IMG/VR virus record: IMGVR_UViG_3300020577_010873 | Span: 1 to 64,000 of that record | Origin: a virus | Lineage: Duplodnaviria > Caudoviricetes | DNA length: 64,000 nucleotides | Direction: 5' to 3' (one strand) | Shown: one piece after another, positions 49,276 through 52,458 of the stretch | Layout of the letters: every line of letters begins with the position of its first letter | How positions within the stretch are numbered: the stretch's first letter is position 1 | The notes under the pieces: model-generated | What the model was told of the DNA's origin: nothing | Seen by the model: only the letters and a program-made list of their open reading frames with translations | Databases searched by the model: none | Translations under genes and position numbers: made by a program

Positions 49276-49708
49276 GCGTCCGTTCGCTATAAGAGGCGAG
49301 TGGCTCGAACGACCGGTCCGGCCAGCGGATGGCAACGCCCCGGAAACCCTGCCAAGGGTCTCTTATCCGGTCGCCAATTTACCGAGCCCCGATTCGCATG
49401 CGTGCGGATCGGGGTTCTTCTTTCCCGGGCAATAAGGAGAGTCTCCGGGGGACCACATATGCCTCGGCGCCAAGCAGTCTTGTGCGGCCAATCGTGGGCG
49501 CCCAACGCTGTGCAAGCATGGAGCGGGCAGCACACCTCACCGCTTAATGGGCCACTGGGTGTCCAGTGGGGCCTCGGATGCCGCGAAAGAGCTAAGGGTT
49601 TACGCAGACAGCCACGCGCCCGAATACCGAGTGAAAAGCGAACGACGACCGACCGACGGTTAAGGTCCGTGAGCGAAGCCTTCCCCGGATGGGTGGGCTA
49701 TCGCTCAC
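49276..49708. ncRNA. Candidate large structured RNA (~430 nt)
   Basis: ORF-poor gap containing at least 8 stems and a long-range closing helix. Confidence 0.45.
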
Positions 49709-49745
49709 TCCTCCCTCCCTCCGATTAAGGTTCTGGTTCCCCGCA

Positions 49746-50612
49746 TTACTTCCTCTCCTCACGTCCGTACCCCGCATCATGTGGGACAATCCGCCAGAAT
49801 TTTGCAGCCTCCTCCGGCCCGATCATCTCGTAGTAGTGGGAGAGCAACACCCTGGGGCTGTTGCCCATGTCGCGCGAGACCGTGTCCGCCGAATCCCCAG
49901 CGGCGAGGCGCATGCTCGCGTGGGTGTGGCGCAGGATGTCTTGGTCCCAGGTGATGCCGGCGGCGGTGGCCAGGGATCGGCGGGCCCGGCGAAGGGTCGA
50001 GTGGGACGAGACGATCGGTCCCGATTCCTGGCGGTCGAGCGACAGCCACGCCGGAGCCGGATCCCTGAGCCGCACGACCCTCCGACTTCGGACCTTCGAG
50101 GCCGCGGCGTCGATGACGATGCACGGGTCGCCCGAGAGACGCACATGGGCCCAGGTGAGGCGCGACGCCTCCAGCGGTCGAAGGCCGGCGAACAGCCCGA
50201 GAACCACCCATGCGCGGATGCGGGTGTCCGCCAGTTGGAGCAGACGGGCGCACTCATTGGCCGTCAGAATGCGCGGGTGACGGCGCTCCACCGTGATGCG
50301 TTCGATGAAATCGCACGGGTTCTCGCGGATCCAGCCGCGGCGCTTGCAGAAGGAAAAGAGGGAACGTAGCCGGCCGACGTTCGAAGCCATGGTCGACGGT
50401 GATTCTGTTCGTGACGCGAACCACTCGTCGATCGCCTGGGCATTGATGGTCGAGACCTGTTGGGTTTCTCGACCCCGGCAAAACTGAGTGAGGTACTGGC
50501 GGAGGCTGGCGATGTAGGCCGGGCGCCGCTTCGCCGCCTCTTTCGCCCTTAGAACTGCGGACACGGCGGTGGAAAATCCGGGGCAGGAGCAGTGGGGCGG
50601 AAGTGGGTACAA
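49746..50612 (-). CDS. int: Tyrosine integrase (start TTG 50612, or upstream ATG 50750/50807)
   Basis: AGLRPLE (R), SKVRSRR (K), DILRH (xxxRH), MGNSP, SHYY (Y). Confidence 0.9.
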   Translation of the reverse strand: MYPLPPHCSCPGFSTAVSAVLRAKEAAKRRPAYIASLRQYLTQFCRGRETQQVSTINAQAIDEWFASRTESPSTMASNVGRLRSLFSFCKRRGWIRENPCDFIERITVERRHPRILTANECARLLQLADTRIRAWVVLGLFAGLRPLEASRLTWAHVRLSGDPCIVIDAAASKVRSRRVVRLRDPAPAWLSLDRQESGPIVSSHSTLRRARRSLATAAGITWDQDILRHTHASMRLAAGDSADTVSRDMGNSPRVLLSHYYEMIGPEEAAKFWRIVPHDAGYGREERK

Positions 50613-50677
50613 AGTGATGAGTTGGCGCAGATCACGACCGGGTATCGGATCTTCCTGGGAACTACTTAAGCGCCGAC

Positions 50678-50720
50678 CCACAATGCCATTGTGGTGCTCT
50701 ACCAACTGAGCTACGACCCC
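50678..50720 (-). other. attP-like core: 5' half (nt 1-43) of tRNA-Ala(GGC)
   Basis: GGGGTCG TA GCTC AGTTGGTA GAGC A CCACA ATGGCAT TGTGG, then no T-arm, acceptor 3' strand or CCA; directly upstream of the integrase core. Confidence 0.75.
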
Positions 50721-50770
50721 ACTTGCCTCGCGGCGGTGGAAGTCAGCCATCTCGGCGAGAGCACTGTCAA
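50721..50770 (-). promoter_or_regulatory. Stable-RNA-like promoter in front of the tRNA half
   Basis: Perfect TTGACA at 50765-50770; GC-rich CCACCGCCGCG discriminator-like tract; weak -10. Confidence 0.45.
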
Positions 50771-50818
50771 GGCCATCATGGTCGGCTCCATCCACGTGAT
50801 GCCTCATCGCTAGGGTCG

Positions 50819-51091
50819 TTACGCAGCGAGAGGCAGGTTAAAAGGCAGCGTGAGCGTTTTGGCGCCACCGGCCTTCAGGAGCAGCACTTCGATGACCTTG
50901 CGCGGATGCAAGTTGTACTTGTCGGCCATGCGCTTCAACACCGCCTCCGCCTCCTCGCCGAACTGGCGCTTGAACATCACGCTGTCTTCGATGATGCAGG
51001 TTTTCGAGCGCCCCGACCGCTCGTAAATGCGATTGATTTCATCGACGACAGGGCGCCCCAATCTATAGGTAGTTGCTTTTTTGTTGGTCAT
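50819..51091 (-). CDS. Ribbon-helix-helix regulator (repressor candidate)
   Basis: KATTYRLGRPVVDEINRIYERSGRSKTCII RHH pattern; co-oriented with int. Confidence 0.7.
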   Translation of the reverse strand: MTNKKATTYRLGRPVVDEINRIYERSGRSKTCIIEDSVMFKRQFGEEAEAVLKRMADKYNLHPRKVIEVLLLKAGGAKTLTLPFNLPLAA

Positions 51092-51130
51092 ACGAACCTC
51101 GCGTTTGCCCAAGTGGGCCTTTCGATTCTG

Positions 51131-51202
51131 AATTTACGGCTATAACATTTGGCGTCAAGTGGAAGTTTGATATTGTCGGGTGCAATACACGGCTATACGT
51201 TA
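51131..51202. promoter_or_regulatory. Divergent promoter/operator region
   Basis: TTGACG-N16-TAAATT (minus), TTGTCG-N17-TACGTT (plus); ACGGCTATA at 51136 and 51189. Confidence 0.6.
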
Positions 51203-51208
51203 ATTCCC

Positions 51209-51412
51209 ATGACGACGCCACACCCCAAAAAGGTCGGGCGCCCCGCAACAGGACGTACGAAAAAGGGCGCGTTCCTTTGGATGAGCAAGAAGACGGATTC
51301 GGACAGGAAGCAGATTGCCCGACGATTCCGGCTGACCCTAACCGATTCCGTTGCAGCCGCATTGGCCTTTGCCAATACCCACCCTGATTTCCGCGGCGTG
51401 GTGCCGCAGTAA
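51209..51412 (+). CDS. RHH/Arc-like regulator (Cro-position)
   Basis: GRPATGRTKKGAFLWMSKKTDSDRKQIARRFRLTLTDSV. Confidence 0.65.
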   Translation: MTTPHPKKVGRPATGRTKKGAFLWMSKKTDSDRKQIARRFRLTLTDSVAAALAFANTHPDFRGVVPQ

Positions 51413-51418
51413 CGGAAA

Positions 51419-51442
51419 AGGCCCCCGGACACCCGGGGGCCT
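51419..51442 (-). terminator. Hairpin with a U-tract on the minus strand
   Basis: AGGCCCCCGG-ACAC-CCGGGGGCCT preceded by AAAA. Confidence 0.55.
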
Positions 51443-51480
51443 CCAACCCAAATCCCGCAACAGCCGAAAGCTACCGAACC

Positions 51481-52458
51481 ATGAACGAATCGTCAACGTC
51501 GAGTATGGCTACTGCAACACAAGCAGAGCCGTCGTCCCAACAGGTGCAGTCCACCGAAGTGCAACCTACAGCACCGAAGGCCGTGGTTCCGATGGGAACG
51601 CGCGGTCTGGTGTTCGCCGATCTGGATGGACTGTGGCGCTTCAGCAAGTATGTCGCGGCGTCCGGATTGGCCCCGAAGGGCATCACCACTCCCGAGGCCA
51701 TTTTCGTCGCAATCCAGATGGGGCTTGAGGTGGGTCTGACCCCGATGGCCGCACTGCAAAACATTGCGGTCATCAACGGTCGCCCTTCGATTTGGGGTGA
51801 CGCGCAACTCGCGGTTGTCCGATCCACCGGCGATCTCACCGAGTTTTCCGAATGGTACGAGGTGGACGGCAAGCGTCTTCCGCGCAATCCCACTGCTTAC
51901 CCCGACAACCTCGTCGCGGTGTGCCGCGTCCAACGGCGGGGATATGCAGCGTCCGAACAGTCGTTCAGCGTGGCTGACGCCAAGTCCGCAGACCTGTGGG
52001 GAAAGGTCGGTCCGTGGAAACAATACCCGAGTCGCATGCTGCGCATGCGGGCACGCTCCTTTGCCCTGCGGGACCAGTTTGGTGACGCGCTGCGCGGACT
52101 CCGATCGACTGAGGAGGCCATGGACGGACCCACGATTGAAGTCGAGACCGAGACCGTGGCTCGGAACATTCCACCCACCGAATCCGCTCCACCACAGGCG
52201 ACGGTCAGCGAGCCCGCGCCGGCCGCGACGACCAAGCCCAAGCAGGCACGCGCGGCCAAGTCCGCGACGCCATCGTTCGCGCAGTGGTGCGCCGACCGTC
52301 AGATCGGTGAGTCCGATGCGCTGAATGCCATCCACCGCCTGTGGCCGGCGACCGAGACCATCGGGAGTCTGGACGAGATCGAGAAGAACCACCCGGCGCA
52401 GGCCAAGTACATCGTGGAGCACGAGGCGGAGTTCATCGCCGAGGTGAAAGCCAACTGA
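51481..52458 (+). CDS. recT: RecT-family single-strand annealing protein
   Basis: IQMGLEVGLTPMAALQNIAVINGRPSIWG and WKQYPSRMLRMRA motifs. Confidence 0.85.
   Translation: MNESSTSSMATATQAEPSSQQVQSTEVQPTAPKAVVPMGTRGLVFADLDGLWRFSKYVAASGLAPKGITTPEAIFVAIQMGLEVGLTPMAALQNIAVINGRPSIWGDAQLAVVRSTGDLTEFSEWYEVDGKRLPRNPTAYPDNLVAVCRVQRRGYAASEQSFSVADAKSADLWGKVGPWKQYPSRMLRMRARSFALRDQFGDALRGLRSTEEAMDGPTIEVETETVARNIPPTESAPPQATVSEPAPAATTKPKQARAAKSATPSFAQWCADRQIGESDALNAIHRLWPATETIGSLDEIEKNHPAQAKYIVEHEAEFIAEVKAN

Follow-up and report, generated by a model that had tools for sequence, protein, structure and literature searches.

The window studied here comprises the first 64 kb of an IMG/VR virus record, which is linear, 73,988 bp long, and about 69% complete. 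On its minus strand, ahead of a gene for a tyrosine integrase, lies the 5′ part of a tRNA-Ala(GGC) gene, and this site is quite probably the attP of a temperate phage of Verrucomicrobiota: the phage would carry the 5′ fragment of its target and would recombine with the host gene in the anticodon loop. This interpretation draws on a block of identity with the host tRNA that ends at the loop and on the place at which related integrases cross over.

The tRNA fragment and its surroundings

Positions 50720..50678 (minus strand) correspond to nt 1–43 of tRNA-Ala(GGC): the 5′ strand of the acceptor, the D arm, and a complete anticodon arm with the loop ATGGCAT, the anticodon GGC, and the pair of loop residues A32/U38. 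A first-pass annotation, made by a model from the sequence of the window, had described nt 1–43 of a tRNA that end abruptly; both the sequence and its comparison with the host tRNA bear this out. Past nt 43, a decayed copy continues (50677..50668), in which the variable loop has lost 2 nt and the T arm is unrelated. ARAGORN called no tRNA at 50720..50678, and the Rfam tRNA model gave the piece 26.8 bits (gathering score, 29) in an alignment that skips the T arm.

The minus strand presents, in order, a promoter-like site, a 97-aa gene, a 98-nt spacer, the tRNA piece, the integrase gene, a 462-aa gene, and the large terminase gene (Table 1). On the plus strand, genes for RecT, an RNA ligase, and an exonuclease diverge from the site. 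Because both flanks are phage DNA, the site is an attP rather than the end of a prophage. The 97-aa gene, which resembles those for ribbon-helix-helix (RHH) proteins, had no match in Pfam or PHROG. We also considered whether the truncation of the tRNA could be an artifact of assembly, and it is not: a Logan contig that covers 49845–50984, possibly derived from the source sample, has zero differences from the window, and eight contigs from other samples are truncated in the same way.

Table 1. Features at the putative att site, in window coordinates.
Feature	Position	Strand	Basis
Short tyrosine integrase, core-binding and catalytic domains; start uncertain (TTG 50612 or GTG 50564)	49746..50612	-	phrog_1, E 6.7e-25
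Decayed tRNA continuation: 3′ strand of anticodon stem, shortened variable loop, T-stem-like start	50668..50682	-	Comparison with host tRNA; absent from relatives
Anticodon loop ATGGCAT, inferred crossover (overlap) segment	50683..50689	-	Repeats of three standard islands start here; two split lysogens break here; 18 viral 3′-type stretches
Identity block, host tRNA-Ala(GGC) nt 1–38 (5′ acceptor strand to end of anticodon loop)	50683..50720	-	Exact match in at least 120 genome contigs; eight other phage attP regions have the same sequence
Conserved upstream segment with TTGACA (50770..50765) and TGGCTGAC motif (within 50750..50740), then small GC-rich hairpin-like spacer	50721..50801	-	Nucleotide conservation in eight phages; also precedes a complete tRNA in two bacterial contigs
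Hairpin spanning the RHH stop codon	50802..50833	-	Folds in six loci; stem sequences differ, GACCC loop conserved
97-aa small gene resembling RHH protein, oriented as tRNA half and int	50819..51112	-	ORF; homologues at equivalent position in L003, L029, and L012
Promoter-like site TTGACG-16-TAAATT ahead of the RHH gene	51131..51158	-	Only sigma-70-like match in 50400–51500

Two further features of this region were observed. The hairpin at 50802–50833 (minus strand) has a stem of 9–10 bp and recurs at the equivalent place in L003, L164, L029, L033, and L095 with its pairing kept; as no T run follows, it is not an obvious terminator. The upstream segment (50721–50801) and its counterparts in the relatives have a weak but significant similarity to the tRNA itself, forward or reverse depending on the locus, and its orientation is ambiguous.

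The identity block and the host

A search for the host tRNA gene, as the first-pass annotation had suggested, found nt 1–38 exactly in at least 120 genome contigs, nearly all of them from Verrucomicrobiota (e.g., Limisphaerales and Pedosphaera). Among the matches listed, every 38-mer that is not ended by a contig edge runs on into a complete tRNA-Ala(GGC) gene. This gene is present as a single copy in the genomes examined. The 74-kb phage record (~69% complete) contains no tRNA-Ala of its own; its tRNAs are tRNA-Met and tRNA-Gly only.

The identical 38-mer also lies just upstream of int in eight further phage contigs (L003, L004, L009, L164, and L203–L206), whose integrases are 41–58% identical to that of the window. 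All eight become unalignable 0–3 nt past the loop ATGGCAT, i.e., after nt 38–41, and the window additionally matches nt 39–43 of the host tRNA. Nine lineages thus have a block of identity, adjacent to int, that ends at the anticodon loop (nt 1–38, extended to 43 in the window). Judged by these alignments, identity with the host on one side of the loop, with free drift on the other, marks an att identity block terminating at the crossover. The proposal that the site is attP-like and carries the 5′ part of tRNA-Ala(GGC), already made in the first pass, gains support from this block and from the crossover position of the relatives described below. The finding assigns the phage to hosts among the Verrucomicrobiota, and it predicts exact junction sequences that can be searched for.

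In two of the related phages, genes just downstream of int match Imm_superinfect (PF14373), and one further gene matches an AcrF31-like family; the genes concerned are at 1511–1804 in L203 and at 1657–1884 and 2726–2917 in L204.

Crossover position of related integrases

Homologous integrases (36–42% identity, with an extra N-terminal domain) are encoded in three bacterial genomes (G001, G002, and G004) approximately 300 nt downstream of a full tRNA gene. Direct repeats 96, 8.5, and 47 kb away extend from (C)CACA plus ATGGCAT to four nucleotides past CCA. By the extent of these repeats, the islands are of the usual 3′ type, with the crossover in the anticodon loop. Matching 3′-type attP sites are carried by the free phages L006, L007, and L012. 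Among viral contigs, 18 stretches contain the segment from the loop to the 3′ end, starting with (C)CACA and the loop, vs. three records with the 5′ part, the window’s own included. One of the free phages, L012, has the RHH-att-int order of the window, and its loop-to-3′-end segment of the tRNA points the same way; the reaction hence keeps its polarity. On this comparison, all that differs from the 3′-type relatives is which arm of attP resembles the tRNA gene.

The three islands (L156/L159, L158/L161, and L160/L157) also have paired 9-nt direct repeats near both ends (e.g., GGGCAGTAT, present twice). These repeats look like arm-type integrase sites.

Integrated forms

The closest genomic integrases found (~45% identity) belong to two lysogens, G719 and G519, in which the host tRNA is split after nt 38. 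Their attL consists of the host promoter, nt 1–38, a short spacer, a complete but different tRNA-Ala(GGC) that is the element’s own, and int. The loop and the host 3′ half lie 13.7 or 12.2 kb away, preceded by the reverse complement of a tRNA 3′ half. As this attL demonstrates, the integrase family yields a junction at which host nt 1–38 are followed by int. The elements themselves (L201/L199 in G719:C14, ~36.4–50.1 kb; L202/L200 in G519:C1, ~235.8–248.1 kb) are integrative elements of 12–14 kb that leave the host tRNA-Ala(GGC) unrebuilt and place their own copy behind the host tRNA promoter. The attR arm of each is an inverted copy of a tRNA 3′ half, so that the junction forms a long palindrome.

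Most of the at least 120 genomic tRNA copies listed have a host-type promoter (TTGACA, ~17 nt, TAnAnT). In two of the listed copies (L033 and L095), the phage-type upstream segment and hairpin take the place of such a promoter; a complete tRNA comes next, with unrelated host DNA beyond it. L033 is on an 884-kb contig with pilus ATPase genes downstream and a degraded small upstream ORF, and its sole tRNA-Ala(GGC) copy is the one behind the phage-type segment; L095 lies ~1.8 kb from a phage-like primase gene. In their sequence layout, both match the attR that would be predicted for a 5′-type element. The MAGs that contain these contigs (G405 and G406) have neither an int homologue nor a second 5′ half. 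The contigs could be old remnants, or they could be donors of the segment that the phages captured.

The search for attL and attR recovered attR-like contigs and, in the G719/G519 relatives, an attL of the expected form, but not both junctions in one genome, nor either junction for the window phage. No lysogen with both junctions was found for this phage or for a close relative (>45% Int identity) in the genomes and metagenomes searched. A metagenome scan with the integrase alignment returned three loci only; 401 genomes of the phylum held no close relative of the integrase; and among 401 genomes of the host order, 29 had homologues, none closer than 45% identity. Contigs from four runs, aligned to 49700–51700, represent the attP form and deletion variants, with no attL or attR junction. 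One 151-nt contig from run X1 ends exactly at 50679, which is only suggestive.

Two junction variants occur in contigs of related phages. In those that are ~90% identical, from wastewater and sludge runs, 50430 is joined to 51094 (X1 and X5); in others, 75 foreign letters separate 50224 from 50984 (X1 and X2). Missing from both are the att site, the start of int (its 5′ part), and the bulk of the small upstream gene; these contigs may represent deletion variants unable to lysogenize.

The integrase

The integrase matches phrog_1 (Table 1) and scores 24.5 bits against Pfam PF00589, under the cutoff of 27.1; most of the 173 homologues found carry PF00589. In 16 sequences, R210, K238, R293, and Y325 are invariant (residues assigned by motif order only). 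Also invariant, and likewise assigned by motif order only, are Asp290 and Asn316 (353-aa ORF numbering), at the places usual for the two catalytic histidines of tyrosine recombinases; many members of the family do have histidine at both. These substitutions may explain the sub-threshold Pfam score. The extra N-terminal domain of the 3′-type homologues is absent from the window integrase.

The reading frame extends well upstream of the conserved domains. As the first-pass annotation had noted, it is open from an upstream ATG through the tRNA half: the ORF 50807..49746 (353 aa) is continuous, and the frame runs up to 50807. Sequence conservation starts near residue 76 of this long ORF, and in the window the integrase likely starts at TTG 50612 or GTG 50564. 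An ORF on the opposite strand over the site (a JGI call in L003) was considered and rejected, as it is not consistently open and has a stop in L029.

Transcription across the site

The TTGACA upstream of the tRNA half is present, as had been reported in the first pass. Its further proposal, that this is a replacement promoter, fared less evenly: TTGAC(A/G) is conserved in most relatives as one part of a two-part motif, at a fixed 15-nt distance from the (C)TGGCAGCC motif in close relatives, but a consensus scan found no promoter at TTGACA 50770..50765 and no recognizable -10 hexamer. Between the (C)TGGCAGCC motif and the tRNA there is a small hairpin spacer of variable length. Among the relatives, a good pair (TTGACC-18-TAAAGT) is seen only in L004. 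On inspection by eye, we rejected the TGGCAGCC motif as a sigma-54 element because neither the spacing nor the GC element fits. The TTGAC...TGGCAGCC element is thus plausible, but unproven, as a promoter. Indirect support for the sufficiency of the upstream segment for tRNA expression in vivo comes from L033, where the sole gene copy lies behind such a segment.

Read-through from the promoter of the RHH gene is a possible alternative source of transcription across the att site. No terminator-like site was found on the minus strand between TTGACG-16-TAAATT (51158..51131) and int. Because the only sigma-70-like site of this region is the one ahead of the RHH gene, and no terminator-like site follows, co-transcription of the RHH gene, the rebuilt tRNA, and int could account for expression equally well.

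Proposed integration reaction

In the reaction that we propose, the integrase would recombine the phage ATGGCAT with the same segment of the host’s single tRNA-Ala(GGC) gene. As the phage homology lies 5′ of the crossover (nt 1–38), the layout of both junctions can be predicted. At attL, the host promoter and host nt 1–38 would be followed by the phage spacer and int, leaving a dead tRNA fragment and placing int downstream of the host tRNA promoter. That integration puts int behind this promoter had been suggested in the first pass; it follows from the geometry and is the arrangement seen in attL of the two related lysogens. At attR, the phage RHH gene, the conserved upstream segment, and phage nt 1–38 would be joined to host nt 39–76, forming an intact chimeric tRNA gene; the host continuation after nt 38 would read TGTGGGGGTC. 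The rebuilt gene would have to be transcribed from phage DNA, either by the TTGAC...TGGCAGCC element or by read-through from the RHH promoter. In most relatives, attP to the right of the loop is unlike the right half-site of the host, and such a mismatch is unusual for an integrase that has no arm-binding domain. It speaks against the proposal, as do the failure to find a lysogen with both junctions in the material searched, the attR-like contigs whose MAGs have no int, the negative promoter scan at the TTGACA, and the Asp and Asn in place of the catalytic histidines.

Variants among the relatives

A quick maximum-likelihood tree of 41 integrases placed the window, L003, L164, L029, and L165 in one clade with 100% SH-aLRT. 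Of these, L029 has a whole tRNA at the site and L165 an inverted tRNA-Val-like segment. Two phages with the identical 38-mer, L004 and L009, fall outside the window clade, the latter next to the 3′-type L012. The well-supported branches require at least two changes of the 5′-type label; from these forced changes, we conclude that the side of homology has switched more than once.

In L028 (10120–10194) and L029 (2455–2530), the small upstream gene and int flank a complete tRNA-Ala(GGC) whose anticodon stem differs, with compensated pairing; after recombination in its loop, each junction would contain a whole tRNA gene. In L165 (4807–4866), and also in L166, the Ala 5′ half is replaced by an inverted tRNA-Val(GAC)-like segment that has a clear T arm and a CCA end and that scores only 15.3 bits with the Rfam tRNA model. 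A search of five host genomes did not recover the tRNA-Val-like pattern of L165.

Alternative explanations

The tRNA half could be something other than a recombination site: a phage tRNA-Ala gene in decay, or a fragment captured beside int by aberrant excision. The complete tRNA-Ala(GGC) at the equivalent position in L028 and L029, the decayed 3′ continuation of the window copy, and the presence of other tRNA genes in the phage all favor this notion. Against it, nt 1–38 are unchanged in nine lineages while everything after the loop is unalignable, and the break coincides with the crossover point of the related integrases; a gene in decay would not keep its identity with the host copy on a single side. 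We regard this explanation as very improbable. The site might also be an attP whose rebuilt attR gene is silent or dispensable, so that tRNA-Ala(GGC) is inactivated by integration and other alanine tRNAs cover for it. The lack of a recognizable -10 upstream of the tRNA half is compatible with this idea, as are the G719/G519 elements, which leave the host gene split. Yet these same elements carry their own complete tRNA-Ala(GGC), implying that its function is needed, and the window phage has none in 74 kb. Moreover, nt 1–31 are conserved more strictly than a core site needs, pointing to selection on a working chimeric tRNA, and in L033 the only tRNA-Ala(GGC) copy stands behind the phage-type segment. 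A silent attR gene is hence unlikely, and an attP that rebuilds a functional host gene is the reading that we prefer.

A different question is whether translation of Int begins at ATG 50807 or 50750 and passes through the tRNA half, such that integration would swap the N-terminus of the protein and the phage and prophage isoforms would differ, an SSV1-like arrangement that the first-pass annotation had put forward. If this were true, and the ORF started upstream of the tRNA half, ~65 N-terminal residues would be replaced on integration; bacteria would then have an equivalent of the SSV1 arrangement, and the swap could determine which way recombination runs. An open frame is present in the window, L003, L164, L028, and L029, and in the window no ATG occurs from the tRNA half to the conserved domain. 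The spacer from the TGGCAGCC motif to the tRNA, measured in 10 loci, is 18, 21, 24, 33, or 36 nt long, lengths that differ only by multiples of three. The frames of L203–L206 and L028/L029 are to be read as ascertained rather than observed, as these loci were selected via proteins that already contained the translated tRNA. The swap nonetheless seems highly doubtful to us. In the upstream stretch, the three codon positions are equally variable (0.62, 0.69, and 0.67 bits for positions 1, 2, and 3), so that it shows no coding signature; the conserved motifs are invariant even at third positions, indicating a constraint on DNA or RNA; and DNA of 62% G+C readily keeps frames open. In the distant relatives L004 and L009, int and the tRNA half are in different frames; in close relatives, a conserved Met start lies past the tRNA half, ~20 aa ahead of the core-binding domain. 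Likelier than an N-terminus swap is that this integrase family records a stepwise switch of att-sidedness, from the 3′ type through a split site with the element’s own tRNA, then a whole tRNA at attP, to the 5′ type.

Comparison with known systems

Archaeal viruses with SSV1-type integrases have their attP within the int gene. The window is similar in that a tRNA-derived att sequence falls within an open frame continuous with int. Unlike in SSV1-type viruses, this stretch shows no translation signature, and the conserved integrase domains lie wholly downstream of it; the enzyme would therefore not be split.

Elements with a 5′ tDNA fragment were reportedly the subject of work by Zhao and Williams in J Bacteriol in 2002 (184:859). 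Since elements that use the 5′ part of a tRNA gene are already documented, the present arrangement is of a known, uncommon kind. In Islander, 5′ tDNA fragments are counted for 159 islands and 3′ fragments for 3760 (3919 in total, ~4% of the 5′ type; PMC4383910), and the passage of PMC6563490 that cites Zhao & Williams 2002 calls elements using the 5′ part “considerably less frequent”. Like the islands and prophages with 5′ tDNA fragments (Zhao & Williams 2002; Islander), the window element carries the 5′ portion of its target; the rebuilt gene would be distal to int, the 5′ fragment would be displaced, and the crossover would be at the anticodon-loop sublocation. Unlike those elements, it is encountered as a free phage attP, it belongs to a lineage of Verrucomicrobiota phages, and its conserved upstream segment is also found ahead of chromosomal tRNA genes. 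Few 5′-type elements have been observed in this free form.

In tRNA-dependent lysogeny (Guerrero-Bustamante & Hatfull 2024, PMC10865867), phages integrate in a tRNA gene with which they share ~10 bp, and a whole tRNA borne by the phage keeps the function. The G719/G519 elements, which split the host gene and carry their own tRNA-Ala(GGC), fit this description (PMC10865867). The window phage is similar in that it would target a tRNA gene and that phage-borne tRNA sequence would be needed for function. It differs in sharing 38 nt, in carrying half a gene that would rebuild the host copy at attR, and in having no whole tRNA of the same isotype in its 74-kb record (~69% complete).

One integrase family, acting at one anticodon loop, thus has four arrangements: the 3′ type, the 5′ type, the whole tRNA, and the split gene with the element’s own tRNA. 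The added value of the present site is this side-by-side series, which bears on how the side of homology switches and on how a phage supplies transcription for a host tRNA. The standard anticodon-loop (“A” site) integrases (L006, L007, L012, G001, G002, and G004) belong to the same family (36–42% identity) and share the tRNA, the loop, and the orientation with that of the window. Their elements, by contrast, carry the segment from the loop to the 3′ end and rebuild the gene next to int, and most of these integrases have the extra N-terminal domain and paired arm-type repeats, whereas the window integrase is without that domain.
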